From sequence record MN850604.1: a stretch of DNA of 50,596 nucleotides. One strand, written 5' to 3'. The notes beneath the pieces were generated by a model. That model did not search any database. It saw only the letters and a list, made by a program, of their open reading frames with translations, and was not told where the DNA came from. This stretch comes from Escherichia phage tunzivis. Position numbers and translations under genes: made by a program. Below, in pieces: positions 24,412-46,477 of the stretch; positions within the stretch are counted from its first letter, which is position 1, and the number at the start of each line of letters is the position of its first letter.

Positions 24412-24429
24412 GTTTAACAAAAAGTGCTA
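24412..24429 (-). promoter_or_regulatory. inverted conserved motif copy in front of major capsid gene
   Basis: GTTTAACAAAAAGTGCTA on + strand, followed by hairpin/T-run and RBS GGAGG; no class-F -10 on either strand. Confidence 0.45.
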
Positions 24430-24436
24430 TCATCTA

Positions 24437-24461
24437 GGCCGTTACATTTAACGGCCTTTTA
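24437..24461 (+). terminator. hairpin with short T-run upstream of capsid gene
   Basis: GGCCGTTA-cattt-AACGGCC then TTTTAT. Confidence 0.45.
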
Positions 24462-24474
24462 TGGAGGAAACAAA

Positions 24475-25446
24475 ATGGCTAAAAAATATGATGAACTAGA
24501 TGCTACGATTGTAGCAAATCATTTACAGGTTCAGGGCGTTAAGGGTGATGCTTCTGATATGGGTATTTGGACCGCTCAAGAGCTACACAAGATCCGCTCT
24601 ACCGCATACGAGAAAGAGTATCCGGCAGGTTCCGCACTTCGCGTATTCCCTGTAACAAACGAGCTTTCTGATACTGATAAGACTTTTGAGTATCAGACTT
24701 TTGATAAGGTTGGCTACGCGAAAATTATCGCCGACTACACCGACGATCTGCCGACCGTGGACGCGCTGATGACTTCTGAATTTGGCAAGGTGTTCCGCCT
24801 GGGTAACGCTTTTCTGATCTCCATTGATGAGATTAAAGCAGGTCAGCGAACTGGCAAGAGCCTGTCAACTCGCAAGGCTAACGCTGCGCAAAATGCGCAT
24901 GATCAGTTGATTAACTTCCTGGTGTTCAAAGGTTCCAAGCCTCATAAGATCGTTTCCGTTTTCGATCACCCTAACCTTACGAAAATTGTTTCTAAAGGAT
25001 GGATGAGCCAGGATGGAAACACCAAGTTCCCTGATGTGGCAAGCGATGAACTGGAGGCTGCAATCGAGACTATCGAGGAAGTAACAAAAGGTCAGCACCG
25101 CGCGACTAACATCCTGATCCCGCCGTCCATGCGTAAAGTCTTGACGGTTCGAATGGAAAATACCACTGAAAGTTATCTTGAATACTTCCAGAAGCAAAAC
25201 GGCGGAATCACTATCGACTCTATCGCAGAGCTTGAGGATATTGACGGCAAAGGTACGAAAGGTTGCTTGGTTTACGAAAAAGATCCAATGAACATGAGCA
25301 TTGAGATTCCAGAAGCGTTTAACATGCTTCCGGCGCAGCCAAAAGACCTTCATTTCAAGGTTCCTTGCACTTCCAAGTGTACTGGCCTTACGATTTACCG
25401 TCCGTTTACGATGGTGCTTATTACTGGCTTGAAAAAGTCAGTTTAA
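24475..25446 (+). CDS. major capsid protein
   Basis: ORF 24424..25446; ATG at 24475 after GGAGGAAACAAA; about 320 aa; followed by strong terminator. Confidence 0.65.
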   Translation: MAKKYDELDATIVANHLQVQGVKGDASDMGIWTAQELHKIRSTAYEKEYPAGSALRVFPVTNELSDTDKTFEYQTFDKVGYAKIIADYTDDLPTVDALMTSEFGKVFRLGNAFLISIDEIKAGQRTGKSLSTRKANAAQNAHDQLINFLVFKGSKPHKIVSVFDHPNLTKIVSKGWMSQDGNTKFPDVASDELEAAIETIEEVTKGQHRATNILIPPSMRKVLTVRMENTTESYLEYFQKQNGGITIDSIAELEDIDGKGTKGCLVYEKDPMNMSIEIPEAFNMLPAQPKDLHFKVPCTSKCTGLTIYRPFTMVLITGLKKSV

Positions 25447-25456
25447 TTAGATAACA

Positions 25457-25490
25457 TGGGGAGCCTTAAGGGTTCCCCCTTTTTTTATTT
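25457..25490 (+). terminator. rho-independent terminator after major capsid gene
   Basis: GGGGAGCC..GGTTCCCC then TTTTTTTATTT. Confidence 0.7.
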
Positions 25491-25504
25491 ACGGAGTACA
25501 CAAA

Positions 25505-25771
25505 ATGAGCAAAACTTTAAAACTTAAAGTAACTGGCGTTTGCATGATTATTATGGACGGTAAGCGTTATCACCATGGTGATGAGATTGAAATTGAATCT
25601 GATCGTATTAATGATTCCGCAATTGAATACCTGATCGCTCGCGGCGATGTGGAAGTTAAAGACAATTCCGAAATTAACGAGCAAATCAAGGAGAAAGCGG
25701 AGAAGAAGCGCAAAAAAGATCCTACAGAGGGCAAGAGCCGCAAAGAGCTAGAGGATGGCGGCGAATATTAA
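25505..25771 (+). CDS. hypothetical head-associated protein
   Basis: 88 aa; Lys/Glu-rich C-terminus; between capsid and connector genes. Confidence 0.4.
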
Positions 25772-25818
25772 TAATTGGGGCGCTTATGCGCCCCTTGTCA
25801 TATCTGGAGAAAACAAAA

Positions 25819-26237
25819 TGGTAGATGAATTTTACACAGACGCTGAAATCGTTCAGCAAATCGTAAAGTTGGCCCCACCAATGCAGCAGGTTGATCCCGA
25901 TTTAATTGTGGCATGGATTGAGCTTGCTAAAGAATTTGTTTGCAAAAAACGGTTTAAAAACTCATACCCGAAAGCGGTTGCGCTTTACACTCTTCACCTT
26001 ATGACCTTAGACGGGGCAATGAAACAGGAAGGTGAAAGCGTAGAAAGCTATTCCCGCCGCGTTGCATCGTTCACTCTGACTGGTGAGTTTAGTCAGACGT
26101 TTGATCGAATTTCTTCCGATACAAGCGGAAAGCAGATCCGACAAACGCCGTGGGGCAAAATGTACGAAGTGTTAAACCGTAAGCACGGTGGCGGCTTTGG
26201 ACTTGTAACTGGATTGCGCCGGAGATGTTGCCGATGA
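25819..26237 (+). CDS. head-tail adaptor/connector protein (putative)
   Basis: ORF 25755..26237; ATG at 25819 after GGAGAAAACAAA; synteny. Confidence 0.45.
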
Positions 26238-26608
26238 ATTACAATGAGATTGCAAGAATGGCTACTGCTGGGATTAACTTTTTCAGCGACGCTAACGGTA
26301 TGTTTAAGTGCATCACGCAGCAGGGAGGGGTTGATATTATCGGCGGGGAGGAAGTTACCAAGCCTGAGATTTCAGTGATGATAAAGGGGCTTGTTAGATC
26401 TCCGAGGACTAGAGAGGTTGACGGTGAAACGATCCGAGTAACCGACAAGTTGGGGGTATTCACCAATGAAACTGAGATCAAAAATGGTTATCAGATTGAA
26501 ATTGATGGCGATCGTTATGTTGTCGTTGAAGCAAGACCAGTCAGACAGACTAACATCACGGCAGCTTATCGTCCGATATTAAGGAGGATTGCAGTGCATG
26601 GCGGATAA
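26234..26608 (+). CDS. head-tail joining protein (putative)
   Basis: ORF 26225..26608; ATGA overlap; synteny. Confidence 0.4.
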
Positions 26609-27041
26609 TTATAAGATCAGGGAATTTCACGGTGATATAAGCAGGTGGATTGATTCAGTAAGCAGCGGCCTTGTTGATTGCGTTGAAATGTTCGCGACAA
26701 ACGTCCACGAGGATCTTGTAAAGCGTTCGCCAGTTGATACGGGCCGATATAAAGCTAACTGGCAGGTAACAGCAAACAAGCCGCCGCTATATGCTCTCAA
26801 TCAATACGATCGCGATGGTAGTAAAACCATTGCAGAAGGCAAGCGAGCAATATATGCAATCATGCGGGGCGGTGGCGCGGTGCGGTCAATCTATTTTTCA
26901 AACATGCTTATTTACGCCAATGCGCTTGAATACGGGCATTCAAAACAAGCGCCGTCCGGCGTGCTGGGAATCGTGGCGGTAAAGCTGCGATCATATATGA
27001 CTAAGGCAATAAAGGATTCGAGGGCAAAAAATGCACTATGA
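26598..27041 (+). CDS. tail-head joining protein (HK97 gp10-like, putative)
   Basis: ORF 26589..27041; ATG at 26598 after AAGGAGG; synteny. Confidence 0.4.
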   Translation: MADNYKIREFHGDISRWIDSVSSGLVDCVEMFATNVHEDLVKRSPVDTGRYKANWQVTANKPPLYALNQYDRDGSKTIAEGKRAIYAIMRGGGAVRSIYFSNMLIYANALEYGHSKQAPSGVLGIVAVKLRSYMTKAIKDSRAKNAL

Positions 27042-27432
27042 TTTAATGTTAGCGGCAAGAAAGGCGCTGGCGGCGGAATATGAATCACTATTCAAGATCG
27101 CCTATGAAAACGTTGATTTTGTTCCGCCTGGTGATGGTTCGATGTGGTTAAAATTTGACTACATGGAAGCCGACACAGATCGCATATCTCTTGATAGAAA
27201 ATGCGTTTCTTATATCGGATTGGTTCAGGTTGGAATTGTTATTCCTCCTGGCGTCGGCACTGATAAAGCGCGTTTGCTGGCTAAAGAGATTGCGAGATTT
27301 TTCTATGATGGTAGAATGTTTGAAACTGGCTATATTAGCGATGGGGCAAACGTCCACGCATTACTAAAAAGTGAAACAGGTTGGTTCTTACCGATCCGTT
27401 TCAGTGTTAGGCTTGACACAAAGGAGGAATAA
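27031..27432 (+). CDS. tail terminator/completion protein (putative)
   Basis: 133 aa; immediately upstream of major tail protein. Confidence 0.4.
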   Translation: MHYDLMLAARKALAAEYESLFKIAYENVDFVPPGDGSMWLKFDYMEADTDRISLDRKCVSYIGLVQVGIVIPPGVGTDKARLLAKEIARFFYDGRMFETGYISDGANVHALLKSETGWFLPIRFSVRLDTKEE

Positions 27433-27434
27433 TC

Positions 27435-28097
27435 ATGCACTTGCCTAATGGTTCTCAAATTTTCATCGGCGTTAATATGGGTGAGCCAATTAGCGCGACT
27501 CAAATCAGCAATGCTGATAATCCTGTTTTTACAACCGAAAACACTCAAAGCATCAAAAAAGGCGCTTATGTTCTTATTGAAACATCTTCTTGGGGAAAAC
27601 TTGTTAGTCGAGTGCTTCGAGTTAAGGAAGTATCAGATAATGTAAGTGTTACTCTTGAGGGTGTTAGCACTAAAGATACAAACGTATTTCCAGAAGGACA
27701 GAACACAGCAACTTTCCGAGAAGTGAAATCTTGGGTAGAGGTTCCTTGCGTACAGGATCTTGCGCAGGACGGCGGCGAGCAACAGTATTACACTTATCAG
27801 TGTTTGGCTGATGACCAGGAGCAGCAGTTACCGACCTACAAGAGCGCGGTTTCTCTTACCTACACTTTCGCTCATGAATATGATAACCCGATTTATCCGA
27901 TCTTGCGCGAGGCTGAGGAATCCGGCGACGTAACCGCTTTGCGTATGTACGTGCCGAAAGCTAAAGAGATGCGTTGCTGGGCTGGCGTATTGTCTTTTAA
28001 TGACATTCCGCAAACAACTATGAACGAAATGGAAACTGTTTCCCTTTCTGTATCTCTGAAAGGCCGATTCACGTTCTTACCTTCCGACGTTAAGTAA
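27435..28097 (+). CDS. major tail protein
   Basis: 220 aa; RBS AAGGAGGAA; followed by strong terminator; precedes G/GT chaperone and tape measure. Confidence 0.55.
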   Translation: MHLPNGSQIFIGVNMGEPISATQISNADNPVFTTENTQSIKKGAYVLIETSSWGKLVSRVLRVKEVSDNVSVTLEGVSTKDTNVFPEGQNTATFREVKSWVEVPCVQDLAQDGGEQQYYTYQCLADDQEQQLPTYKSAVSLTYTFAHEYDNPIYPILREAEESGDVTALRMYVPKAKEMRCWAGVLSFNDIPQTTMNEMETVSLSVSLKGRFTFLPSDVK

Positions 28098-28100
28098 AAC

Positions 28101-28124
28101 AAGGGGCGTTGCGCCCCTTTTTTC
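28101..28124. terminator. terminator after major tail gene (possibly bidirectional)
   Basis: AAGGGGCG-ttgc-GCCCCTT then TTTTT; A-rich on 5-prime side. Confidence 0.65.
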
Positions 28125-28163
28125 ATTCCTGTAAAATCAATCTATCAAATAAATTAATTCCAC

Positions 28164-28181
28164 TTTTAACAAAAAGTGCTA
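28164..28181 (-). promoter_or_regulatory. inverted conserved motif copy abutting RBS of tail chaperone G
   Basis: TTTTAACAAAAAGTGCTA then TAAGGAGATCTTAAGATG; on the opposite strand a TAGATT lies at the canonical +37 distance. Confidence 0.45.
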
Positions 28182-28196
28182 TAAGGAGATCTTAAG

Positions 28197-28514
28197 ATGG
28201 CAAAGATGAAACTAACGTTAGGCCCACTGCCTGATTTTAAGCTGCCTGTTTCTTTCGTGCTTCCAAATGGTGATGAGCAAGTTATTGTTTTTACCGTGCG
28301 CCACAAGAAGGCAAGCGAAATTCACGAACGATACACGGCAGAAAAGCCGATGAGCGACGTAGAAATGATCACCTTCCTTGCTTCCGGTTGGGATCTGGAA
28401 GATGAATTTAACGAGGAAAACGTTGCTAAATTGCTGGATTATTACCCGTCTGCGTCATTATCGCTGACTGGTCATTATATGAAAGCACTTGCTGGGCAGC
28501 GGGTAAAAAACTAA
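28197..28514 (+). CDS. tail assembly chaperone G
   Basis: 105 aa; ends just after slippery heptamer A_AAA_AAC (28505..28511); precedes tape measure. Confidence 0.7.
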   Translation: MAKMKLTLGPLPDFKLPVSFVLPNGDEQVIVFTVRHKKASEIHERYTAEKPMSDVEMITFLASGWDLEDEFNEENVAKLLDYYPSASLSLTGHYMKALAGQRVKN

Positions 28515-28831
28515 AGCGGGCGGTTTACCTGTTTTACCTCAAGCCGCCAACTGACGCACAATTAGAGGCCGTCGGCCTATCCCGTTCAGACTACGAAGGG
28601 GAGGATCCGCCGGAGGTAATTTTTGATGAATCAATGTTTCAATCTTGGGATCTATTTTGCGCCATGCAGACGCAATGGAGATCGACTAGCGGCAGTGTGT
28701 ATGGGTTCGACTATAACGTTTTGCCTATGCTTTTTGACATTTACAAGATTGAGGATCGGGAGATGGCGCTAAATGATTTGCGCATCATGGAACAAAAGGC
28801 GCTAGAAATGATTCATTCAAACAAAACATAA
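28197..28831 (+). CDS. tail assembly chaperone GT (-1 programmed frameshift product)
   Basis: -1 frame stays open from 28511 to 28831 (the track ORF 28634..28831 is its distal part); lambda G/GT-like arrangement. Confidence 0.55.
28505..28511 (+). other. -1 programmed ribosomal frameshift slippery site A_AAA_AAC (G to GT)
   Basis: heptamer lies 1-2 codons before the G stop; -1 frame open for a further 107 codons. Confidence 0.6.
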
Positions 28832-28852
28832 GCGCCGAGAGGCGCTTTTTTA
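28831..28852 (+). terminator. rho-independent terminator after GT
   Basis: AGCGCC-gaga-GGCGCT then TTTTTT. Confidence 0.6.
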
Positions 28853-28870
28853 ATATCTGGAGGTTTTAAA

Positions 28871-31552
28871 ATGGCTGAAAAATACGCTGGCCTAACGCTA
28901 GGCGTTGACGTGTCGCAGGTCAACAATGCTGTTAAATCATTGCAGCAATTCAAGAAGGCAAACGACGACGCAAAAAAAAGCGTTAATGAATTTGTTGATT
29001 CTGAGGTTGTGGCGCGACAGCAAGCAAAACAGTTTGCCGAAGAACTGGCGCGCCAGAAAGCAGAATTTAAGAAAATCCAAGAGTCAATTGATCCCACCGC
29101 GTCAAAGATGGATAAGCTGCGAAAGGCAGCGACACAGCTTGATGCGCTATGGAAAAAGGGCATTGTTCCTGATGAGACTTTTTTTGAGCTTGGATCAATT
29201 CTTGAGACGCAGCAAAACAAGCTGATCGCAACAAAAAAAGCGATGACGGAGGAAGGCCGCGCGGCGCTTGAGGAATCAAAGAACAAAGCGCGTGCAGCGG
29301 AAGAGGCTAAAAAATTCGTCCAGGCTTTGCGTGAGCAGGAAGAAGCAGCCGGAAAAAGCAAGTCTGAATTGCTGGAAATGAAAGCGGCACAGCTTGGTGT
29401 TAGCCAGGAGGCAGCGCCTTACATCGCAAGGCTGAAAGAGCAGGAAAAGCAGATCCAAAAACTTGGAATTTCTACGGGCCAATACAAACAAGCAATGGCG
29501 CAATTGCCAATGCAGATCACAGACGTGGTGACTTCACTTGCTTCTGGAATGCCTGTTTGGTTGGTCGCAATCCAGCAGGGCGGACAGATTAAGGATTCTT
29601 TTGGTGGCGCATCCAATGCTTTAAAAGCGTTGCTATCTTTCCTGAATCCGGTAAACGTGGCGTTTGGCTTGCTTTCCGGTACGCTGGCAATTGCTGCATA
29701 TAATGCCTACAAAACACAGACAGAGTTTGAGGCAATTAAAAAAACCGTTCAGGAAACAACTGGCTTGACTGGTGATTTTGCCGAAAAGATTGCTACCGGA
29801 ATACAGGAGCTTTCCGACAAGACAGGCGAAAGCGCCGAAGATCTTGCAAAGGCTTACATCACTACGAAAGACGGCGCGAGCGAGGCGATTAAAAAACTGG
29901 TTGACGTTGGCATGACTTATGATGACGCAAAAAAGAAAGTCAACGAGTACAAGGGCGCGTCTAGCTTTGTCAGCTTGAATAACGAAATTGCAAACCACAA
30001 AAACAAAGTCCTTGAGTTGGGCGATTCGTGGTATGAGGTTTTGAAAGCGAAGCGTGATTACGCTTCCCCGTCCGGCGGCCTGTTAGGTAAGGAGCTTGGC
30101 TATGTTAACCCTATGCTTAAGTTTGCACTTAACACTTATGAAGACATTGGAAAGGTCGTAAAAGATGCGAATAAGGACATGGCGGAACGAGCGGAGCGAA
30201 TCGACAAAGAAAACCTGGCCTTAAACAGAGTGCGCGCAGCACAGGAGGCTTTAAACAAAGCTATTGAGGATCAGAAAAATGTGGCGCGTTCGGCTGATGA
30301 AGAACTGAAAAAGCGCGCGGCTGAAAACGTGGAGTTTAGGCGCAAAGAGCTTGAGGAAATCAAGAAGCAGGAGCAGAAAAAGAAAGAGGCTAAAGGTGGA
30401 ATAGTTCGCGGCCCGACTGAGCAGCTTGATAAAGAGTTGTACGTTTTAAAAGCGCAACTGGAGATGCTTAAAGAGCATCGCACTGTTAACGATGTTATTT
30501 CTCGCCAGCGTAAATCATTATGGAGTATCGAAAAGCAGATCGAGATCCTGGAGGAAGCGCAGAGCAAGCGTAAATTGACCGGAGCGGAACAGGCGCTACT
30601 AAACGAGCAAAAAGCCGTTCTTGAAATGGCAAGGCAAAAAGCGGAGCTAGGGGATCAGATTGTTTTACAGGAGCGCAAAAACAAGCTGGAGCAAGATAGC
30701 ATTAAGTTTATCCGTGAAACTCAGGCGGCTATTGATGTGCTTGGCCTTAAGCAACTTGGCTACACTGAAAAGCAGATCGAGCGTGAGCTAGAGTTACGCA
30801 AGCTGCGCACCGACTACGAGGCGCAAGGCGGAAGCATTAGCGATGAAGTTTTTCAGCAAATGGAGGCGAAACTTAAGCAGTATTATCAGACACAGGATGA
30901 GGTTCAAGGCAACTGGTTGGCAGGAGCAAAAAACGCATGGGAGATGTTCGCGGAAGATGCAAACAATGCCTATGGCAATGTTCAGCAGATCGCAAGCGAG
31001 GCGTTAAACGGCCTTACAAACCAATTAGCGAATTTTATCGCTACTGGCAAGGCAAACTTTAAAGACTTCTCGACGGCTATCATCAAAATGATTATTCAGA
31101 TGATTACGAAAATGGTTGTCTTTAATGCGTTATCTGGCCTGATGGGTGGTCAAACCTGGACGATGGGGAGCTTGCTTAAGAATATTGGCGGATTTGCTGG
31201 CGGTGGATACACTGGCGACGGCGGGAAGTATGAGCCAGCCGGAATTGTCCATAAAGGTGAATTTGTCATGACGAAGGAGGCGACGCAGCGTATCGGGGTA
31301 GGAAACTTGTACCGCATGATGCGAGGCTATGCTAACGGCGGCGTTGTTGGTAGTTCCGGCCATACTGGCGGTGGCGCTGTAACTGGTGGAGCACCTCAAT
31401 TTAACATCGGCGGGATTGATGTTAGCATCACTAACGGAAACGATCCGAAGGGCATCGAAACTGGTGTTAAGATGATCTTTACTGATATGATTAAACGTTC
31501 CTGTATGCAGGGCGGCGAGGTTTACGAATTTGTTATGAGCAAGCGAGGTTGA
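28871..31552 (+). CDS. tail tape measure protein
   Basis: 893 aa; highly alpha-helical Lys/Glu/Ala-rich; C-terminal Gly-rich region; canonical position. Confidence 0.85.
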   Translation: MAEKYAGLTLGVDVSQVNNAVKSLQQFKKANDDAKKSVNEFVDSEVVARQQAKQFAEELARQKAEFKKIQESIDPTASKMDKLRKAATQLDALWKKGIVPDETFFELGSILETQQNKLIATKKAMTEEGRAALEESKNKARAAEEAKKFVQALREQEEAAGKSKSELLEMKAAQLGVSQEAAPYIARLKEQEKQIQKLGISTGQYKQAMAQLPMQITDVVTSLASGMPVWLVAIQQGGQIKDSFGGASNALKALLSFLNPVNVAFGLLSGTLAIAAYNAYKTQTEFEAIKKTVQETTGLTGDFAEKIATGIQELSDKTGESAEDLAKAYITTKDGASEAIKKLVDVGMTYDDAKKKVNEYKGASSFVSLNNEIANHKNKVLELGDSWYEVLKAKRDYASPSGGLLGKELGYVNPMLKFALNTYEDIGKVVKDANKDMAERAERIDKENLALNRVRAAQEALNKAIEDQKNVARSADEELKKRAAENVEFRRKELEEIKKQEQKKKEAKGGIVRGPTEQLDKELYVLKAQLEMLKEHRTVNDVISRQRKSLWSIEKQIEILEEAQSKRKLTGAEQALLNEQKAVLEMARQKAELGDQIVLQERKNKLEQDSIKFIRETQAAIDVLGLKQLGYTEKQIERELELRKLRTDYEAQGGSISDEVFQQMEAKLKQYYQTQDEVQGNWLAGAKNAWEMFAEDANNAYGNVQQIASEALNGLTNQLANFIATGKANFKDFSTAIIKMIIQMITKMVVFNALSGLMGGQTWTMGSLLKNIGGFAGGGYTGDGGKYEPAGIVHKGEFVMTKEATQRIGVGNLYRMMRGYANGGVVGSSGHTGGGAVTGGAPQFNIGGIDVSITNGNDPKGIETGVKMIFTDMIKRSCMQGGEVYEFVMSKRG

Positions 31553-31554
31553 TA

Positions 31555-31905
31555 ATGAAGCTGGATCAGTTTAAGTGGTGCACGCAGGTTCAGAACGGTG
31601 GCGGGTCCATGACGTCATCAAATAACGATCGAGAGATTGCATTCGGTAACGGATACACACAGGTAGCATCTGGAGGCTTTAACACAATCCGGCGAGAGTT
31701 TAGCATTGTTTACGCTGGGCTTGATTACAGAGATGTTGTCAAGTTCCTAAATGAGCACAGACTAAAACCTTTCTTGTGGATCATGCCTGATGGAAGCCCT
31801 GGATTGTTCAGAGTGAAAAGCGGTAGCGTCGGCCTTACTCCATTGTCGCCAACCGTTCAGGAAGTAAAAGCCACTTTTACGGAGCAATTTACATCAATGC
31901 AGTAA
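31555..31905 (+). CDS. minor tail protein (lambda gpM-like)
   Basis: ORF 31549 (TTG); ATG 31555; about 116 aa directly after tape measure. Confidence 0.55.
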   Translation: MKLDQFKWCTQVQNGGGSMTSSNNDREIAFGNGYTQVASGGFNTIRREFSIVYAGLDYRDVVKFLNEHRLKPFLWIMPDGSPGLFRVKSGSVGLTPLSPTVQEVKATFTEQFTSMQ

Positions 31906-31908
31906 TTT

Positions 31909-31934
31909 AAAGCCGCCTTTGTGCGGCTTTTTTC
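31909..31934 (+). terminator. rho-independent terminator
   Basis: AAAGCCGC-ctttgt-GCGGCTTT then TTTTCTT. Confidence 0.6.
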
Positions 31935-31967
31935 TTGATGTTACAATGAGCAAAAAGGAGGTAGAAA

Positions 31968-32729
31968 ATGGCTAATAAAGAATCAGGTAGAGTTGAATTT
32001 GAGAACTGCCTACAAAGTTTGTACCCAGGCGAAATTATAACGCTTGTAGAGATTGACGGGACGAAGTTCGGAGCAAATATTTACCGATTTCACAATGAGA
32101 ACATCTCTTATACTGCCGAGGAATTAATGCAAGCGCAGCAAACCGGAATCTTGCCGCCGAAAGATATTATTTTTCAGGGTGATGTTTACGGAGCGCGGCC
32201 TTTCGGTGTGAGCGGGATTAACTTCACAAGTAACGGCAGGGCAGATAAGCCTCAGCTTATAGTGTCAAACCTTGACAGCAGGGTTAGCGCCATGATCAGA
32301 AATTACAATGGCATGATGCAAGCAAAGGTGACTTTCTGGATCACGGCAAAGGAATTTATAGGAGAAGGCGGAGCAATCAAAGATGGCGCTTACAGAAAAT
32401 TGGTTTATTACATTGAGCGCCCAAGCCAGTATAATAGAGAGGTGGCGAAATTTGATCTGACATCGCCTTACGATATGGATGGATTAATGATCCCGCCGCG
32501 CATCACTCAAAGCGTTTGCTATTGGGCGCAAAGGGGGTGGTACAGGAGCGGAAAGGGTTGCTCTTATAACGGATCGGCAATGTTCGATAAAGACAATAAG
32601 CCAGTAACAGATCCATCACAAGACTATTGCGCCGGAACTGTAACGGCTTGCAAATTGAGGTTCGGTCAGCAAAACGAGTTGGATTTCGGCGGTTGTGCGG
32701 TGGCATCACTGCTACGGAGGAATCAATAA
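31968..32729 (+). CDS. minor tail protein (lambda gpL-like)
   Basis: 253 aa; C-terminal Cys cluster (CYWAQ...GKGCSYNGS...CAGTVTAC); RBS AAAAAGGAGG. Confidence 0.65.
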   Translation: MANKESGRVEFENCLQSLYPGEIITLVEIDGTKFGANIYRFHNENISYTAEELMQAQQTGILPPKDIIFQGDVYGARPFGVSGINFTSNGRADKPQLIVSNLDSRVSAMIRNYNGMMQAKVTFWITAKEFIGEGGAIKDGAYRKLVYYIERPSQYNREVAKFDLTSPYDMDGLMIPPRITQSVCYWAQRGWYRSGKGCSYNGSAMFDKDNKPVTDPSQDYCAGTVTACKLRFGQQNELDFGGCAVASLLRRNQ

Positions 32730-34043: not shown

Positions 34044-34067
34044 ACCCGCCTTGCGCGGGTTTTTTTG
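34044..34067 (+). terminator. rho-independent terminator before J
   Basis: ACCCGC-cttgc-GCGGGT then TTTTTTT. Confidence 0.65.
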
Positions 34068-34115
34068 TGCATTTATAATGTGCAAACCAAGAAACAGCAC
34101 AAAAGGTTAAAAGTC

Positions 34116-37694: not shown

Positions 37695-37724
37695 AAAAGG
37701 GGGCATAGCCCCCTTTAATTTTAA
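37695..37724. terminator. bidirectional terminator between J and the convergent leftward operon
   Basis: AAAAAAGGGGGC-ata-GCCCCCTTTAATTTT. Confidence 0.6.
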
Positions 37725-38335: not shown

Positions 38336-38337
38336 TA

Positions 38338-38885: not shown

Positions 38886-38937
38886 CTTTATATCTCCTTA
38901 GTTGTTGTTTTCAACTATACACGATCTTGGGCATCGC

Positions 38938-38955
38938 GTTTAGCAAAAAGTGCTA
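38938..38955 (-). promoter_or_regulatory. conserved motif copy (variant TAGCACTTTTTGCTAAAC) upstream of lipoprotein operon 38885->37721
   Basis: 18-nt spacer then TATAGT; RBS AAGGAGAT. Confidence 0.5.
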
Positions 38956-39325
38956 TTTGTTATTTTTTGTTTTCCGGTGTTATCGAATTTAAGACGGCGT
39001 AAATTTAGCGCAAAATTTAGACAACATAAGATCAATAAACAATCAATAAAATAGATATATACATATAAAATCAATAGTTTATTTATTTATGTATGTATAT
39101 TTGTTTTTTCTTGTTATCTGCGTTTCTTGTGGTTTTGGTTGTTTGTGGTGATTTTTCTTTCTGAGTATCTGTATGTGCCATCATTCATGTGTATGTATAT
39201 AATCCGGCGTATCTGAGAGAACATGGTAACAAGAAAAATAACACACATTAATCATTAACTTATGAGTCAAATCTGTTTTCTTGCCATCTGAGAACGTTTA
39301 GAAAACAGAAAAAACAAAACAGCTA
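38956..39325. repeat. second AT-rich divergent control region, partly homologous to 8750..9300
   Basis: GTTTTCCGGTGTTATCGAA 38969..38987 matches 8982..8999 with one inserted T; ATCAATA repeats; TTTATTTATTTATGTATGTATAT; GT-rich TGTGGTTTTGGTTGTTTGTGGTG. Confidence 0.5.
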
Positions 39326-39353
39326 TTGACTAAATCAACCAAATGGCTACAAT
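39326..39353 (+). promoter_or_regulatory. near-consensus sigma70 promoter (TTGACT-16 nt-TACAAT), candidate early promoter for recombination operon
   Basis: TTGACT 39326..39331, TACAAT 39348..39353; 30 bp upstream of exonuclease gene. Confidence 0.6.
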
Positions 39354-39383
39354 GCACGCATAAAGCAACAAGGAGCATTAAAG

Positions 39384-40439
39384 ATGAGTGATTTTAACGC
39401 CTACACTAGCGAAGAAATGAGCAACGAGCTTTATCATGATCCTAACGCGTGGACTGCTGAATATGTCAGCGGTTCCAGCCTAGCGGAGATTTACAGCACT
39501 TGCCCGGCGTACTGGAAGTACAAGCCGCGCCAGGAAACTAAGGCACTTGTTTTCGGTACGCAGTCGCATACCAACTTTGAAAGCAAGGAGCTATTCGAAA
39601 AAACATATCGCCGCGCACCGTCGCAGGATGATTTTAAAGATCTGATCACTAGTCAAACGGCGTTAGCATCAAAGCTGAAATCTTTTGGCCTGAAAGGTAC
39701 AACGGGCAAACAATACCCTGAATTACTGGAAATGCTGTACAAGTGCGGCGAGGATCTCAATGTGTGGTGGCTTATCGAAATGATGGCAGAATGCCAGGCC
39801 GCAGCGGACGGAGTGCAGTTAATAGACGCTAAAGATTATGATGCCTGTGTAGCGATGCGGCGCGTACTTGAGGCCATACCGGAGCATAACGCTTGCATGA
39901 ACAGCCCAACCGCGCAGCGTGAAATGTCAATATTTGGGATCATCAACGGCGTAAAAGTAAAAGTGCGTCTTGATCACGTTGACGTAAACAAGGATGTAAA
40001 GGCAACAATCATTAACGGTTACGACGAAAAAGGCAGGCCGATTTATGAAGAAGTCACCTATCCAGAAGCGGTGATTATCACTGACTACAAAACAACGGTT
40101 AGCGCAAATCCGGTTGACTTCCAGCGCCTGGCTTACAATCACGGCTATTATCTTAAAATGGCTTTGCAACATGACTTATTCAAAAAGGCGTATCCAGACG
40201 AGGAAAGGCCAGTAATTGTAAGATTGCTTGCTCAAGAGAAGAAAGAGCCTTACTTGCCGCTCGCATTCCGCATGAACATTGAGCAGTTGAAGATTGGGCG
40301 TATCCAGTACATGAGCGTGATCAACAAGTTTAACGTTTGCCAGCAGTTAGATGAATGGCCTTCGTATGCAAACGGACAACCAGAAATTGATCTTGATACT
40401 CCTGATTGGGTCCGTGCTCAATTCAGGCAGTATCTGTGA
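39384..40439 (+). CDS. PD-(D/E)xK recombination exonuclease
   Basis: 351 aa; RecB-like nuclease core (LDHVDV ... VIITDYKTT); first gene after consensus sigma70 promoter; followed by Erf and SSB. Confidence 0.55.
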   Translation: MSDFNAYTSEEMSNELYHDPNAWTAEYVSGSSLAEIYSTCPAYWKYKPRQETKALVFGTQSHTNFESKELFEKTYRRAPSQDDFKDLITSQTALASKLKSFGLKGTTGKQYPELLEMLYKCGEDLNVWWLIEMMAECQAAADGVQLIDAKDYDACVAMRRVLEAIPEHNACMNSPTAQREMSIFGIINGVKVKVRLDHVDVNKDVKATIINGYDEKGRPIYEEVTYPEAVIITDYKTTVSANPVDFQRLAYNHGYYLKMALQHDLFKKAYPDEERPVIVRLLAQEKKEPYLPLAFRMNIEQLKIGRIQYMSVINKFNVCQQLDEWPSYANGQPEIDLDTPDWVRAQFRQYL

Positions 40440-40514
40440 CAAACTAAACAAATAGCTAAACTTTTATAATGGTTGGTGATATAATTCGCCAACCAGATAA
40501 CGGGAGAATGAGAA

Positions 40515-40772
40515 ATGACAGATAAAGACAATGCCACATTATTGCATTTAGAACGATTCATTGATCGAGTAACCATTGCAATGAAAGAATTTATTAAGCC
40601 GATGAACATTAAAGAGTCTGAAGAAATGAAGACTTATATCAAGGACGTGGTTGCATCCATTGACAACGTTATCCTTGTTGCAACGATGAGCAAGGGAAAC
40701 AAAGAGCGCGAGAGGTTGGTTGCTGAATCAACAGAAGAATTTATTAAAATGCTTGAAAGCGAGAAGGAATAA
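40515..40772 (+). CDS. hypothetical protein
   Basis: 85-aa ORF; RBS GGGAGAATGAGAA. Confidence 0.4.
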   Translation: MTDKDNATLLHLERFIDRVTIAMKEFIKPMNIKESEEMKTYIKDVVASIDNVILVATMSKGNKERERLVAESTEEFIKMLESEKE

Positions 40773-41429
<657 letters not shown>

Positions 41430-41434
41430 TAAAC

Positions 41435-41454
41435 GGGGCGCTTGCGCCCCTTTT
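41435..41454 (+). terminator. hairpin/T-run after erf
   Basis: GGGGCG-cttg-CGCCCC then TTTTGT. Confidence 0.5.
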
Positions 41455-41472
41455 GTCATAGGAGAAAACAAA

Positions 41473-41925
41473 ATGCACGTTATTACAGGTGAGATTCGAA
41501 AAGAGCCAAAAGTAAAGCAAATGCCTAACGGCAGCACGCTATATGTTATTGAGCTTTCCGAACGATACAAAGACCGAGAAGGAAATTGGCAGTATACAAA
41601 CTATGTGTTTTTCTTTAACGCGAAAACAGACGGCCTGAATGGTTGGTATGCTGAGGCGTTCCAGGTGGGCAAGGTTATTTCTGTTTCCTGCGATACCTTG
41701 CGAGTTGAAACGCGAGAATACAACGGAAAGATTTACAGTACCGTGCAGCCTGGCGGATTTGCAAACTTGCTATTTAGCCAGAGAGGTGAAAGCCAGCAAC
41801 AATATCAGCAGCGAACGCAAGGAGGATGGGGGCAACCACAACAGCAACAGCAACAAAATACTCAACAGCAGCCGCAGCAAAGCAATCAGCCTCCGATTGA
41901 CTTTGACGACGATATACCATTCTGA
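41473..41925 (+). CDS. ssb: single-stranded DNA-binding protein
   Basis: ORF 41422..41925; ATG 41473 after GGAGAAAACAAA; Gln-rich linker; C-terminal tip DFDDDIPF identical to the E. coli SSB acidic tail. Confidence 0.8.
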   Translation: MHVITGEIRKEPKVKQMPNGSTLYVIELSERYKDREGNWQYTNYVFFFNAKTDGLNGWYAEAFQVGKVISVSCDTLRVETREYNGKIYSTVQPGGFANLLFSQRGESQQQYQQRTQGGWGQPQQQQQQNTQQQPQQSNQPPIDFDDDIPF

Positions 41926-41930
41926 TAACA

Positions 41931-41959
41931 AAAAGCCCCGCATATGCGGGGCATTTTTT
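41931..41959. terminator. bidirectional terminator between ssb and convergent tail-fibre operon
   Basis: AAAAAGCCCCGC-atat-GCGGGGCATTTTTT. Confidence 0.65.
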
Positions 41960-42632
41960 AGTCTAACGTGGTTGGTTTGTTTACCAGTGCCGCTACAACC
42001 GCTTTTAGCTCGTCAATTTCTTTTCTCATCTCATCGTTTTCCGCTTTCAGTTTCTTAACGTGGTGAATCAGTGGAACAGTGAGGCGGTCATACATAACGC
42101 CTTCCGCCACCATGCCATTACTTGAAGCAATGGCAGGATCTTCTCCTTCTTGCAGCGGTCGCCAGTGAACGTACTCCGGCGCAATTTCTCCAACCTCTTC
42201 CGCGATTAGCCCGTACCATCCCCAATCTTTACGGTCGCTTTCACAAGTTGACCGATACCAAACAGGACGCATTTCAAGCATCAGATCCGCATATTCATCA
42301 ATAACCGATTCTACGCTGCTCTTATAACGAGAAGAGGAAGTGGAGCGTAAAACTTGCGACACTCCAGCATTTGGATCAAGCCATAAGTTTGCTGATTGAG
42401 CGGTTGTGTTAAGATTAAATAAATAAAATGCATCTTTACCAGTTAGGGGGTAAAAACTCCCACTATACCTTCCGCTACCCAACTCGGATGATAGATCAGT
42501 TTGTTTTAGATACAACTTCAACTTATTGTCAACATCAGTAGTTGATGCTTTTCCTGCAACATCCTGTTTTAGTGTTGAAACGTCATTTTTCAGCTTCGTT
42601 ATATCACTAGGTATAACAGTGACTGTAGCCAT
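41958..42632 (-). CDS. tail-fibre-associated protein (putative assembly/chaperone)
   Basis: 224 aa; coiled-coil N- and C-termini; last gene of tail-fibre operon; RBS AAGGAG. Confidence 0.35.
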   Translation of the reverse strand: MATVTVIPSDITKLKNDVSTLKQDVAGKASTTDVDNKLKLYLKQTDLSSELGSGRYSGSFYPLTGKDAFYLFNLNTTAQSANLWLDPNAGVSQVLRSTSSSRYKSSVESVIDEYADLMLEMRPVWYRSTCESDRKDWGWYGLIAEEVGEIAPEYVHWRPLQEGEDPAIASSNGMVAEGVMYDRLTVPLIHHVKKLKAENDEMRKEIDELKAVVAALVNKPTTLD

Positions 42633-42644
42633 TTTCCTAACTCC

Positions 42645-42923
42645 TTAAGCCCATTCTCTAATAGGCTGATCTAACTCAACCACGTATCCATTAAAAATTA
42701 CGGCATCAAACTTATCATCAATGATTCGCACATTAACGAAATAGCCGTCGTTCTTTCGCGCAATCTCCTCGCCATCGTCAGATCGTGCAATTACTGTATA
42801 AGTATTGCCGATTACATCGAGCAGGATTGCATCCTGAATGGATTCGTTATCATCCCAATTAATTTTTCCTAAAAAGGCCGAAAACTCGGCCTTGTCTGAA
42901 AATTTTAATGTTAAATCACGCAT
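42645..42923 (-). CDS. hypothetical protein
   Basis: ORF 42645..42968; start set to internal ATG 42923 which overlaps the tail-fibre stop (TAATG). Confidence 0.35.
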   Translation of the reverse strand: MRDLTLKFSDKAEFSAFLGKINWDDNESIQDAILLDVIGNTYTVIARSDDGEEIARKNDGYFVNVRIIDDKFDAVIFNGYVVELDQPIREWA

Positions 42924-44878
42924 TAAACAATTTCCCCCAATTGATGATCTGTTAGTGCCTTGTGCCATATACGGAAGTTTCTAACGTGCCCGAAAAGATG
43001 ACGTTCTCCCGTAGTTGTTTGTCCGCCAATCCTTATAGTAGCCGTCGATCTTATGTATCTCCATTCCGCTTTTGATTCGCTTGATATTATGGAATTACTT
43101 ACACAACAAGTATTGTAATCACTCTTTACTCTCATTCCCATGATCATCTTTTTTAGTTTCGCATTCTCGTAAACCCTTCGGTTTGAGTTACCTATGTCGC
43201 AATAAGGGAATCCGTCATTATCGCCTTCGGCAGACCCGAAAGCAAGAATTATTGCCGCTCCGGTTTGATGGCCGGATGTATCAAAAACACGTGGCGCAGC
43301 GTTTGGCGTTATACTCCAGTTTTTATGAGCTTCCACAAGCACTGTAAACGGCAAATTGTAAAGGTTGTTTTTTATTGGCAATGTAACCATATCGCTTGCC
43401 CTTGTTGTCGGACTTTCATTAGTTATAATGAATGATGAAGCGCAAGATCCAACCTCTACTTGAGGAGTTGTTAAATCCATAAAGCTATTTTCATCAAAAA
43501 CTTCTCCTTGTTTATTAACGACCTGTATTACCCCCCTAATGGAAGTTGATTCATCAGTAACTTTGTAAACTATTTCTGCAAAAATCCATTCCCCGTCTAT
43601 GGTAGCGTTCTTTAGCACTATGTTTTTTGCGTCAACTCCAGAAGTTGCCACCCCTAAGTTATCGCAATCAATAATAGCAGAAGCAACAGAAGATAAAGGA
43701 TCTCCCTTGTCAAATCTTGCTGCAAATCTTACATTTTTCCCCTTAGCCCTAAAAGATATTGTAACTCCATCACCCTTTACAACTGCAATCTTATTTGCAG
43801 CAGGTCCAGCTATAATAGTGTAAGATCCTACGCCACCTAAATATTCCCCTGGTTTAAATGTTGCATACTTAAACCCCCTTTCATCAGTCTTAGTTTCACC
43901 TCTTTCTAATCCTGGATTTGGATTCCATGATTCAGGCTTATTTGAATTTAAAAAATAGTTTGTTCTCTGCCCTTCAATCAAAAGACCATCCTTTTCAAAT
44001 CTAGGTTCATCAATAGCAGCATCAGTAAGCAACCCAGACTTATTAATGTAAGTAGCGGTTGATGCACGTTTAAACTTAACAATCTTGTCACCTGGCATCG
44101 TGATCTCATCATCACCTATGACAATCTTTTTGTATGACGGCGAGAATCCGGTGATCATATCCAGGGAATCATTAAATGGTATCCACACGTCAGGTAGAGG
44201 CTGCAATAAATCTTTGTAAGGTTCTGCGGCCTGTTTTGCGTATTCCTCCGCTTGATCTCGCGCACTTTCAGCGCCTGCCTTTGCGGTGTTCGCAGCATCA
44301 CGCGCAGTTTCAGCGCCTTTTCTTGCAGTTTCAGCGCCAGTCTTTGCAGTGTTTGCAGCGTCGCGCGCGGATTCAGCGGCAGCCTTTGCAGTATCAGCGC
44401 CTTTCTTGCTATTCGCTGCATTTGTTGCGCTTGTCTTCGCGTTATTCTCGCTGGTTTTAGCTGCCTGCTGGCTTGCTGCTGCTGCGTCAGCATTTGTCTT
44501 TACGTCTTCCTGGATCTTCTGTAGCTTATCCCAATCAAAATCCTTGATGATCTCAATAAATCCAGCAAACTCCGATTCCTTCCCCTGGTAATAACGCAAC
44601 GTTTCCGCTACGTCTTGCGCAAGACCGTCAACCGTTAACGAGTCATGAAGCAAGATCAGGTAATTTGTCTTCTGTACTACCGAGCCTCCAGTAGTAATTG
44701 CGCGAATGCTTGTATCGCTAATCACTTCTGTAATCACAGCAGCTTGCAAAGGTTGAGCAAGAAAGAAAATAGTTGCACCTGGGCGAATCAAGGTTAATTG
44801 CTCACGCCATTTTGTACCGTAACCAGTTACATAACCTTGCGCGTCCATAGACGCTTGGCCTTGTCTGTAAATCGCCAT
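42923..44878 (-). CDS. tail fibre protein with Ala-rich repeat and lectin-like (LamG-type) C-terminus
   Basis: ORF 42923..44902; ATG at 44878 after AGGAGG; degenerate Ala/Thr/Lys repeats (DTAKAAAESARDAANTAKTGAETARKGAETARDAANTAKAGAESARD); C-terminal ...HVRNFRIWHKALTDHQLGEI resembles concanavalin/LamG lectin signature. Confidence 0.65.
   Translation of the reverse strand: MAIYRQGQASMDAQGYVTGYGTKWREQLTLIRPGATIFFLAQPLQAAVITEVISDTSIRAITTGGSVVQKTNYLILLHDSLTVDGLAQDVAETLRYYQGKESEFAGFIEIIKDFDWDKLQKIQEDVKTNADAAAASQQAAKTSENNAKTSATNAANSKKGADTAKAAAESARDAANTAKTGAETARKGAETARDAANTAKAGAESARDQAEEYAKQAAEPYKDLLQPLPDVWIPFNDSLDMITGFSPSYKKIVIGDDEITMPGDKIVKFKRASTATYINKSGLLTDAAIDEPRFEKDGLLIEGQRTNYFLNSNKPESWNPNPGLERGETKTDERGFKYATFKPGEYLGGVGSYTIIAGPAANKIAVVKGDGVTISFRAKGKNVRFAARFDKGDPLSSVASAIIDCDNLGVATSGVDAKNIVLKNATIDGEWIFAEIVYKVTDESTSIRGVIQVVNKQGEVFDENSFMDLTTPQVEVGSCASSFIITNESPTTRASDMVTLPIKNNLYNLPFTVLVEAHKNWSITPNAAPRVFDTSGHQTGAAIILAFGSAEGDNDGFPYCDIGNSNRRVYENAKLKKMIMGMRVKSDYNTCCVSNSIISSESKAEWRYIRSTATIRIGGQTTTGERHLFGHVRNFRIWHKALTDHQLGEIV
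44203..44467 (-). repeat. Ala-rich degenerate repeats within tail fibre gene
   Basis: repeated GCGCCTGCCTTTGC/GCGCCAGTCTTTGC-type units encoding (A/T)AKxGAE(T/S)ARDAANTAK. Confidence 0.5.
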
Positions 44879-44896
44879 TTGTAAAATCCTCCTAAA

Positions 44897-44913
44897 TAGC
44901 ACTTTTTGCTAAT
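44897..44913 (+). promoter_or_regulatory. near-palindromic conserved motif copy abutting RBS of tail fibre gene
   Basis: TAGCACTTTTTGCTAAT; read on the gene strand gives ATTAGCAAAAAGTGCTATTTAGGAGG...ATG. Confidence 0.45.
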
Positions 44914-44943
44914 GACAATGCAGATAATAGCATTTTCAAGTGC

Positions 44944-44968
44944 AAAAAAAAACCCCGCATAAGCGGGG
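44944..44968 (-). terminator. rho-independent terminator after primase gene (leftward)
   Basis: on minus strand CCCCGC-ttat-GCGGGG followed by 9 T. Confidence 0.6.
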
Positions 44969-44984
44969 CAATACTAGCGGAGTT

Positions 44985-45914
44985 TTATAGCAGTGATTCA
45001 GGCTTGTAGAGTTTTCTTTCTACGCCCTGTTTAAAATTATCGTTAACAGGCATCATTATGTCAAGCCCTCTTTCCTCTGCCGCGATTATCACATCACGAT
45101 CATCTTTCCGGCAGACTACGCGCATTCTTCTTTCTCCTTTATATCTATGCGCAACCATTTCAAGATTTGAAGGAGTAAAACAGGCCCACACCTCTTGACC
45201 AGTTGATAAATGAACATGCTGAGAATCAACCCAATCAAGGCACAAATAGATCGTCTTATCTGTACTACCTGTTTTAACAACAGATCCGCGCGTGTAGTCG
45301 CGAGCTAAAAACCAATCCTTTCCATCCTCATCAATGAAAAGCACGTTACACATTTCATCATCCAGCCCGTCATCATGCACCAGGTGACAAGGTAGCGCGT
45401 GAATGTATCGACCATCCTTGACTCCGCAATCATAATGACAATCTTCCGGCGGATATATCCCCTCATAAACGCTTAAAGGTGTGCGATCGAATTTTAATGT
45501 TTTTTCCATCACTTTTTCGCAACATTCATGACTTGCCTGTTTCCCGAACGAGTAACCAGAAGAACGCGAAGCGCGTTTGTTTGCTCTGATCCTGTAATCT
45601 TGTGGCACTTTTCCGAGGAAGCGGCCCAAAATGTTGATGGCCTCGCTGTAAGGTTCGCCAGTTAATTTCATTAACCAACCGATCCCCGTGTCGTTGCCGC
45701 ATACGTTGCAGATCGCGCCGCCGTCGCCCTCTTCATTTAGCTTATCAGTCCACCTAAAACGATCCTTACCGCCGCAGTGTGGGCAAGGCTGATGCTTTTT
45801 GTTGAAAACATCGCTATGCAGTCCGCAAATGCTTTGTAGTGCTTCACGCCATAACCCCTTCATATATGGCAAAACATCTTCTTTCTGATAGGTCATAAAG
45901 CTTTCAGTATTCAT
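44985..45914 (-). CDS. DNA primase (zinc-ribbon type)
   Basis: ORF 44985..45992; ATG 45914 after GAGG; primase zinc ribbon CPHCGGKDRFRW...CNVCG; adjacent to helicase gene. Confidence 0.6.
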   Translation of the reverse strand: MNTESFMTYQKEDVLPYMKGLWREALQSICGLHSDVFNKKHQPCPHCGGKDRFRWTDKLNEEGDGGAICNVCGNDTGIGWLMKLTGEPYSEAINILGRFLGKVPQDYRIRANKRASRSSGYSFGKQASHECCEKVMEKTLKFDRTPLSVYEGIYPPEDCHYDCGVKDGRYIHALPCHLVHDDGLDDEMCNVLFIDEDGKDWFLARDYTRGSVVKTGSTDKTIYLCLDWVDSQHVHLSTGQEVWACFTPSNLEMVAHRYKGERRMRVVCRKDDRDVIIAAEERGLDIMMPVNDNFKQGVERKLYKPESLL

Positions 45915-45969
45915 GGCAAACCTCAATAAAAAAGCCCAGCAAATATTATCATTTCGCTGAGCCTTATCA

Positions 45970-46446
45970 TTAGCTATTTGTGCTGTTATCACCTTTGTAG
46001 AATCGTCCGCCTGGTTCGTAGTCTGAATTTTTGACTACGCGCAACATCTCGTATTTGTCGCAACGGGTAGTAAGAGGCTTACCGTTAGAATCAAACCGCA
46101 GATCTGGACGACAAAATGATGCGCGGTATCCTTTGCATCCATTATATTTGTAGTCGTTATGCACCTTTTGTGCTCCAGCGGCTGAAATCATACCACGCTT
46201 TCGCCATTGGTTAACGACTTGCTGAGATACGCGTAGACGTCGAGCCATAGCAGGAACACCGCCATAATACTCGATCAGAATATCCAGGCGAGATTTCAGG
46301 CTTGCTTTTACCTCATCTCGCAGGATAAGAAATCCGGTTCGGTGTTTTCGTGGCTTTTTGTCTTTACCTCGTCGCGTTCCGTTGTTACCGTTAATAGTGC
46401 GCTTGTCGATCTCACCCGTAGAAACTGCAATTCGTGCATCTTTCAT
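45970..46446 (-). CDS. HTH DNA-binding protein (candidate transcription regulator)
   Basis: 158 aa; helix-turn-helix-like GGVPAMARRLRVSQQVVNQWRKRG; RBS AGGTGA abuts an inverted copy of the conserved motif. Confidence 0.5.
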   Translation of the reverse strand: MKDARIAVSTGEIDKRTINGNNGTRRGKDKKPRKHRTGFLILRDEVKASLKSRLDILIEYYGGVPAMARRLRVSQQVVNQWRKRGMISAAGAQKVHNDYKYNGCKGYRASFCRPDLRFDSNGKPLTTRCDKYEMLRVVKNSDYEPGGRFYKGDNSTNS

Positions 46447-46458
46447 CTAGTCACCTCA

Positions 46459-46477
46459 TAGCATTTTTTGTTAAAAC
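46459..46477 (+). promoter_or_regulatory. conserved motif copy (TAGCATTTTTTGTTAAAAC) in divergent region between HTH gene and helicase
   Basis: forward for helicase (TATTAT at +37); on the other strand it directly abuts the RBS of the HTH gene. Confidence 0.55.

Follow-up and report, generated by a model that had tools for sequence, protein, structure and literature searches.

We analyzed a 50,596-nucleotide stretch of DNA from Escherichia phage tunzivis (sequence record MN850604.1), hereafter the window, for a short element, ATAGCACnnnTTGyTAA, which recurs in it. The phage is a T1-like coliphage (Drexlerviridae, Tempevirinae, Warwickvirus; the rank is taken from the classification of phage ExeQuayColi). 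Between 24000 and 29000, the window is 99.4% identical to the Escherichia phages Tuinin and ExeQuayColi and 98.4% identical to SECphi27. Gene names follow the annotations of ExeQuayColi, T1, Stevie and KP36. A sequence-only reading of this DNA had placed copies of the 17-nucleotide (nt) element, reversed relative to the gene, in front of the genes for the major capsid protein, the tail chaperone, the tail fibre and a helix-turn-helix (HTH) regulator. All four copies do exist, within 1-2 nt of the positions given there, and they match the consensus perfectly or nearly so. We describe here how these copies are placed relative to predicted promoters, and propose that a single phage regulator may read them.

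The element was searched for with a weight matrix trained on the phages T1, Stevie, KP36 and Vc1 only, the window being left out. At a threshold of at least 10 bits, 20 copies were found in the window vs about 0.7 in shuffled sequences, and the 17-mer ATAGCACTTTTTGTTAA with up to three mismatches gave 18 matches vs 0.30 expected. Sixteen window copies are of a kind that we call forward: a -10 box lies 21±1 nt downstream, and the centre of the element falls near -42. In 71 forward copies from four genomes, the gap to a TAnnnT or CAnnnT hexamer is again 21±1 nt and the element spans -50 to -34; no -35 hexamer was found at 16-19 nt from the -10 of the forward copies. The layout of class II activation, a site near -41.5 with a weak or absent -35, is seen at the forward copies only. 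Five positions (A3, G4, C5, A6 and G13) are invariant in the 71 copies, and positions 8-10 vary (TTT, GAA, AAA). The core is a dyad, TAGCA-N5-TGyTA, with complementary pairs at 2/16, 3/15, 4/14, 5/13 and 6/12. Such a 5-bp dyad with a variable centre has the outline expected of a site for an HTH dimer.

Two other assignments of the element were rejected. Its TTGyTA would stand 22 nt from the -10 if it were a -35. The consensus of σ54 promoters, TGGCAC-N5-TTGCW, has GG and GC exactly 10 bp apart; the element, TAGCAC-N3-TTGC, is 2 bp short and has AG instead of GG.

Direct repeats of 21-22 nt have been described in T1-like phages, namely DR1-18 in TLS (PMC11447400) and the repeats of Stevie and T1 (PMC4319613). 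These repeats are one and the same sequence (aaATAGCACnnnTTGnTAAAA), and the forward copies of the window are those repeats. A literature search with the exact element sequence returned unrelated matches only. In the repeat papers all repeats run along transcription, about 76 nt before start codons, and inverted or late copies and σ70 promoters are not discussed (PMC11447400, PMC4319613). The four inverted copies break this rule. The chaperone, fibre and HTH copies lie 14-28 nt from the ATG, and the capsid copy 61 nt. All four match the 17-nt core of the repeat consensus perfectly or with one mismatch; the AAAAC flank is weaker at them. On the weight matrix, three of the four (capsid, chaperone and fibre) reach 28.3-28.7 bits, equal to the highest of any copy, and the HTH copy reaches 24.8 bits.

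The copy at the capsid gene lies on the minus strand at 24414-24430 (ATAGCACTTTTTGTTAA; TTAACAAAAAGTGCTAT on the gene strand). A σ70 promoter is predicted on the plus strand at 24406-24433, consisting of a -35 TTGCAC (24406-11), a 16-nt spacer and TGc followed by TATCAT (24425-33). The copy covers about -26 to -10 of this promoter and gives 14 of its 16 spacer bases and the first three bases of its -10. A GC hairpin with a T-run follows on the plus strand at 24437-24462 (-13.1 kcal/mol, z -2.7). Since the hairpin begins 3 nt past the -10, the predicted start (about 24440) falls inside its 5′ arm. The Shine-Dalgarno (SD) sequence is at 24463-67 and the ATG at 24475. The gap between the copy and the SD is thus 32 nt, with the hairpin and T-run in it, and the earlier statement that the inverted copies adjoin the SD, which stands for the other three genes, fails here.

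The capsid-region DNA has matches in 818 records. In nearly all of 79 related loci, a copy in the same orientation lies 58-79 nt upstream of the capsid ATG. When 46 distinct relatives were anchored on the copy (their capsid proteins are 54-98% identical to that of the window), AAAA, TTG, TTA.C and TG.TAT..T were invariant. Since TTA.C is invariant in the spacer and is not needed by σ70, this fact suggests that selection acts on the operator as such. The element is decayed at its end (GTGCTTATCAT) in three relatives, which retain TATCAT. KP36 (Webervirus) has the same element consensus, and its capsid copy alone is degraded (ATATCACGAATCGTTAA). No -10 was found at the canonical gap on the opposite strand of the capsid copy, where the T at -7 is missing. 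A promoter has been placed at the capsid site by the annotators of KP36, and the copy is already listed in Table S1 of the TLS paper as DR7, on the negative strand (PMC11447400).

The chaperone copy (ATAGCACTTTTTGTTAA, minus strand, 28166-28182) directly adjoins the SD (28183-88, 0 nt; ATG 28197). The predicted sense promoter (plus strand, 28109-28137) has a -35 TTGCGC, a 17-nt spacer and a -10 TAAAAT at 28132-37, and the copy occupies about +23 to +39 of its transcript. The -35 is located in the loop and 3′ arm of a terminator hairpin after the major tail gene (28101-28119). On the minus strand, a -10-like TAGATT at 28139-28144 lies exactly the canonical 21 nt from the element, as the sequence-only reading had noticed, and is directed away from the chaperone gene. 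The predicted starts are at about 28144 for the sense promoter and about 28132 for the opposite one, which leads away from the gene. Only 1 nt separates the two -10 boxes, and polymerase at one would therefore exclude polymerase at the other.

This copy is kept in 18 distinct relatives including T1, in an alignment that is ungapped for 62 nt upstream of the element. The TTGC in the terminator loop, the 17-nt distance and TA.AAT are invariant in this upstream region. In all 18, a TAnnnT hexamer on the opposite strand stands exactly 21 nt from the element, and the 21 nt between vary freely. The chaperone copy is absent from Tlsvirus and Webervirus; matches near the gene in these genera were rejected as look-alikes in coding sequence. 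The terminator had been thought possibly bidirectional. In the window it is so (z -3.5 for the minus-strand fold), but the minus-strand T-run is not conserved in T1, which makes a functional short antisense RNA doubtful.

The tail fibre gene is read on the minus strand (ATG 44878, SD 44888-93). Its copy, ATAGCACTTTTTGCTAA, lies on the plus strand at 44896-44912, 2 nt from the SD, and covers about +5 to +21 of the predicted transcript. An extended -10, TGcTATTAT, is found on the minus strand at 44924-44932, just after the primase terminator (44953-68). Twelve distinct relatives have the copy, and T1 has a variant of it of the GAA class; in some lineages it has degenerated or been lost. In most of the 12, tgcTAt.AT stands at a fixed distance of 11 nt from the element (6 nt in T1), and -10 variants TATAAT and TAGAAT occur. 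On the opposite strand, the fibre copy lacks a -10 at the canonical gap.

The fourth copy, ATAGCATTTTTTGTTAA (plus strand, 46458-46474), had been described as dual, and it is: it runs forward relative to the helicase gene (ATG 46534) and is inverted relative to the HTH gene. In the helicase promoter it occupies -50 to -34; in the HTH transcript it lies at about +16 to +32, and it adjoins the HTH SD (46452-57) with no gap. The two predicted -10 boxes overlap with a 1-nt offset, the helicase TATTAT being at 46496-501 on the plus strand and the HTH TATAAT at 46497-502 on the minus strand; a -35-like TTAAAA is at 46519-24 (minus). Both hexamers are kept in relatives, as TATAAT, TATACT or TATCAT on one strand and TATTAT, TAGTAT or TATGAT on the other. 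The σ70 promoter of the HTH gene is TTGAAT-17-TATAAT in T1 and TTGACT-17-TATCAT in TLS, where it was predicted by the TLS authors as P57. The copy lies 0-1 nt from the regulator SD in 20 distinct sequences including T1 and KP36, and the single exception among the relatives is a locus with a truncated match to the regulator. Such a site at the SD of the regulator gene is a layout typical of autoregulation.

Conservation of the inverted copies in related phages had been proposed as a check of the earlier idea. The copies are conserved, at the capsid gene in nearly all relatives, at the HTH gene in all but the truncated locus, and at the chaperone and fibre genes in subsets. The way in which they meet the promoter differs among the four. 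At the chaperone, fibre and HTH genes, an extended -10 formed by TGCTAT of the element was considered and rejected, as T at -7 occurs in 0/18, 1/12 and 0/20 sequences, respectively. At the capsid gene, the hexamer that starts at the TAT of the element ends in T in 44/44 copies. This contrast indicates that none of the other three copies serves as a -10 box. Each of them lies downstream of a conserved -10 of its own.

Orientation is not the common factor of the late copies, since forward copies are found at the portal gene, at a J-like tail gene and, in T1, at the gene for the terminase small subunit (TerS). Inversion does not mark late genes in general. The portal copy (plus strand, 19788-804) spans about -36 to -20, 7 nt from TATAAT (19812-17), which is followed by a hairpin and T-run at 19819-40. 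It is kept in Tempevirinae relatives and absent in T1, Stevie and KP36. The J-like gene has a degenerate copy, ACAGCACAAAAGGTTAA (plus strand, 34094-34110; below 10 bits on the weight matrix), which overlaps the SD, lies downstream of a TTGCGC-17-TATAAT promoter (34051-79) and equals DR8 of the TLS repeats. In T1, the TerS copy adjoins the SD. It had also been suggested that the element is an orientation-dependent site of a regulator that activates or represses. A regulator site fits best, but the classes are separated by position relative to the core promoter, not by orientation.

Terminators and promoters of the late region form composite units of two kinds. In one kind, a GC hairpin with T-run begins 0-3 nt after a -10 (19812-19840, 23529-23580, 24406-24456, 25429-25478); this closeness puts the predicted start into the 5′ arm of the hairpin. 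In the other, a TTGCGC -35 lies in the loop and 3′ arm of the terminator and the -10 after the T-run (28101-28137, 34044-34079). In such units, read-through from upstream would stop and the unit's own transcripts would escape.

The candidate binder of the element is the product of the HTH gene (45970-46446, minus strand), a Cro-like HTH regulator of 158 aa homologous to T1 Orf23/Pir. It matches PHROG 2856, its fold matches are of Cro/cI type, and its Pfam matches to YdaS and P22 Cro are below threshold. Homologues were found in 849 phage records, and all 25 that were sampled are T1-like genomes of 44-52 kb. The protein is the sole annotated regulator in these genomes. Rather than the HTH, the part most strongly conserved is a basic arm at the N terminus, DKRTINGNNGTRRGKDKKPRK (residues 10-35), with ten invariant residues. 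The arm is predicted to be disordered (predicted local distance difference test, pLDDT, about 55), and the putative recognition helix varies between genera.

On balance, we favour the reading that all copies are one 17-bp pseudo-palindromic operator of a Pir-like protein, which would activate from -42 and repress from sites within or downstream of promoters. A dimer of the Cro-like regulator would bind TAGCA-N5-TGyTA. At about 16 early or middle promoters without a -35, the operator would lie at -42, from which the regulator, acting like a class II activator, would bring in host RNA polymerase. The bound protein would block polymerase at the portal promoter (-28) and at the capsid promoter (-18, across the spacer and -10), and in the early transcribed region of the fibre gene (+13), the regulator gene (+24) and the chaperone gene (+31). 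At the chaperone and HTH genes, the site would serve in addition as the -42 element of a forward-type promoter on the opposite strand. Since the -10 of that promoter adjoins or overlaps the sense -10, activating it should exclude polymerase from the sense promoter. The net effect would be that one protein switches on replication and early genes, limits its own synthesis and probably holds down the virion genes.

This operator reading is supported by geometry, conservation and the fold matches of the protein from this analysis, and by the dual activity of Pir from the literature (PMC6737242). In reporter assays, T1 Pir activates Pdam and Phol and represses its own promoter and PrecE (PMC6737242). 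When the T1 reporter fragments were mapped, Pdam was found to have a canonical forward copy (38953) and Ppir the dual copy (36444). Activation of the former and self-repression at the latter match what position predicts.

It is worth noting that several facts weigh against this reading. Every transcription start given here is predicted, as are further starts near 44917 and 46490 on the minus strand and near 46508, 19824 and 34086 on the plus strand; a search of the literature and data sets found no transcriptome or transcription-start data for a T1-like phage. The Pir binding site or motif was not defined, and late structural promoters were not tested, by Laganenka et al. 2019 (PMC6737242). 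The Pir-responsive Phol and PrecE of T1 carry at most a half-site, and T1 Porf65 has a canonical forward GAA-class copy, yet is reported to be Pir-independent (PMC6737242). In the Vibrio phage Vc1, the putative recognition helix is very different and the element is unchanged; as a test of co-variation this comparison was uninformative, and it counts mildly against the model. We know of no mechanism that would relieve repression of the late genes. Finally, the Klebsiella phage KP15, a T4-like phage of 174 kb, has a complete forward-type module near dexA (10019-10086), and no Pir homologue of KP15 appeared among the sampled matches, no direct check having been made. Polymerase alone may therefore be able to use such promoters. 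The KP15 module comprises the element, a hairpin, TATAGT, a CATCGAAAC leader and an SD. The 3-kb segment around it is at least 95% identical in about 140 related phage records, and the module points to transfer of a cassette between phage families.

Among other explanations, the inverted copies could be forward-type promoters that face the other way and make antisense or divergent RNAs acting on late messages. The sequence-only reading had raised this, and the geometry it calls for is indeed conserved at the chaperone gene (18/18) and at the HTH/helicase pair, where the copy belongs to a genuine forward promoter of the helicase gene; in the window, the chaperone antisense transcript would end after about 35-40 nt at the bidirectional terminator. 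The same geometry is absent at the capsid and fibre genes, however, where no opposite-strand -10 stands at the canonical gap and the -7 T is missing, and the T-run of the chaperone terminator is absent in T1 and weak elsewhere. Moreover, the conserved TA at the chaperone can be read as -1/+1 of the sense start. Taken together, we regard antisense promoters as quite unlikely to explain the copies. The element might instead act in RNA, as an SD-adjacent leader that is bound by a protein or paired with read-through early transcripts, and thereby control translation or stability. Three copies stand 0-3 nt from an SD and would be transcribed, and early polycistronic RNAs would contain their exact complement. 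The predicted leaders, on the other hand, fold no better than shuffled sequences (z -0.2 to -0.7), no Rfam family matches the whole window at the gathering score, and the promoter spacer that contains the capsid copy is not transcribed. The forward copies at the portal, J and TerS genes could not pair, and the freely varying central triplet (TTT, GAA, AAA) fits the uncontacted centre of an operator better than it fits base pairing. The earlier suggestion of a 5′ untranslated or RNA-processing element finds no support, and a role in RNA seems very improbable.

It would also be conceivable that no phage protein is involved, and that host polymerase or a host factor reads an UP-like or -35-substituting module, the late copies being incidental reuse as a -10 or relics of shuffling. 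TTTTTGTTAAAA resembles the outline of an UP element, the capsid copy supplies TGnTAT, the module has moved into the T4-like KP15, and Porf65 is reported to be Pir-independent. The element is located at -50 to -34, however, which is not the position of an UP element, and its invariant AGCA/G13 dyad is not like an A/T tract. Full activity of Pdam needs Pir (PMC6737242). In addition, the three copies that do not serve as -10 boxes (chaperone, fibre and HTH) are nonetheless at or near the consensus and conserved. This explanation is therefore considered unlikely. A positive late role, in which the regulator is loaded onto polymerase at the capsid promoter for read-through of terminators in the manner of lambda Q, would suit a copy between -35 and -10 with a hairpin and T-run directly after it. 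It would suit a late region with a terminator at almost every unit, too, where the hairpin loops often contain -10-like hexamers (TACATT, CATAAT, TATTAT). Against it, only the capsid promoter has its copy in this position. The remaining copies are found downstream of promoters, and self-repression is documented at one of these copies; the half-site at the capsid promoter covers the TG and the -12/-11 positions needed by σ70. The candidate protein is Cro-like and shows no sign of a Q fold, the other open reading frames not having been searched for a Q homologue. We judge a Q-like role to be highly improbable. Polar roadblocks resembling stoperators were proposed in the Stevie and TLS papers; orientation would then set the blocked direction. 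Many copies are intergenic with a strong bias of orientation, and those at +13 to +31 could block elongation, but the fixed 21-nt coupling to a -10 indicates a function in initiation, the core is dyad-symmetric, and both orientations occur at transcribed late-gene positions. A general roadblock function thus has little to recommend it in our estimation.

The proposed Pir-like operator has parallels in known systems. Lambda cI at OR activates PRM from OR2 at -42 and represses PR. As with lambda cI and the C proteins of restriction-modification systems, a dimer of probable Cro/cI fold would here use a pseudo-palindromic operator of about 17 bp, activate from about -42, repress where the site overlaps the core promoter and regulate its own gene at a divergent promoter pair. 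An overlap of operator and core promoter is seen at the capsid promoter, where the regulator would bind. Unlike lambda cI, the sites are single, without cooperative arrays, and about 20 are spread across a lytic genome; there is no lysogeny switch, and the divergent promoters share their -10 region. The Mor and C proteins of phage Mu likewise act at promoters without a -35, from a dyad site near -43, to switch on gene classes through host polymerase. They belong to another protein family, and no Pfam match to Mor was found for the regulator; to our knowledge, Mor and C do not double as repressors at other promoters. Mycobacteriophage L5 stoperators are similar in that many short intergenic sites are read by one phage regulator able to block transcription. 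In contrast to the present element, they are asymmetric and serve prophage silencing; here the core is a dyad, most copies stand at a fixed distance from a -10, and both orientations are found.

The repeat and the dual activity of Pir were already published; what is new is that non-canonical copies are placed within σ70 promoters or directly after them, and the proposal that connects the repeat with the regulator. The two published facts had not been connected. The study of T1 Pir, the homologue of the HTH protein of the window, draws no link to the repeats (PMC6737242), and the 2024 TLS paper lists the function of the repeat as an open question (PMC11447400). The position model predicts that copies at -42 activate and that those at -28, -18 and +13 to +31 repress, and it yields promoter predictions for the capsid, tail chaperone, fibre and regulator genes. 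If true, it would account for the control of host polymerase by a small lytic phage that encodes neither a polymerase nor a sigma factor, and would offer engineers a compact set of activator and repressor parts. More than 800 genomes of T1-like phages have been sequenced, and many of these phages are candidates for therapy. A bolder form of the proposal, which we put forward tentatively and consider rather doubtful, is that the whole early/late switch of T1-like phages resides in one regulator, whose loss, titration or inactivation would flip both classes. While present, this regulator would fire about 16 promoters without a -35 from -42, and the otherwise strong σ70 promoters of virion genes would be silenced in two ways, by occupancy and by activator-driven occlusion from divergent promoters that share the -10 region.

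Some further observations concern the promoters of the window. At 1150-1265, a terminator and a plain promoter-like stretch lie in front of the holin gene, and no copy of the element is present there; the hol promoter of T1 is reported to be Pir-activated (PMC6737242). A homologue of Orf65, the second regulator of T1, was searched for in the window and none was found; the open reading frame at 14284-14730 was considered for this role and rejected, being of the same length but unrelated. It encodes 148 aa with no Pfam match and lies downstream of the copy at 14255-14271, the sole GAA-class (fully palindromic) copy at a forward-type promoter in the window. The portal copy is a related TAA variant. 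In 11-12 of the 16 forward promoters, a stable hairpin (mean z -2.8) either separates the element from the -10 or has the -10 inside it. The stem sequence differs from copy to copy and the pairing is kept, as at 10105-10125, 5475-5500, 15590-15620 and 45940-45968. The hairpin of the primase promoter is a complete terminator whose loop contains the -10. Two leader motifs recur in the interval from the -10 to the start codon. One, CATCGAAACGA(AC), occurs four times in the window. The second, CCAATCAGGAG, which includes the SD, is found two to five times per genome in the forward-promoter leaders of the window, T1, Stevie, KP36 and Vc1.

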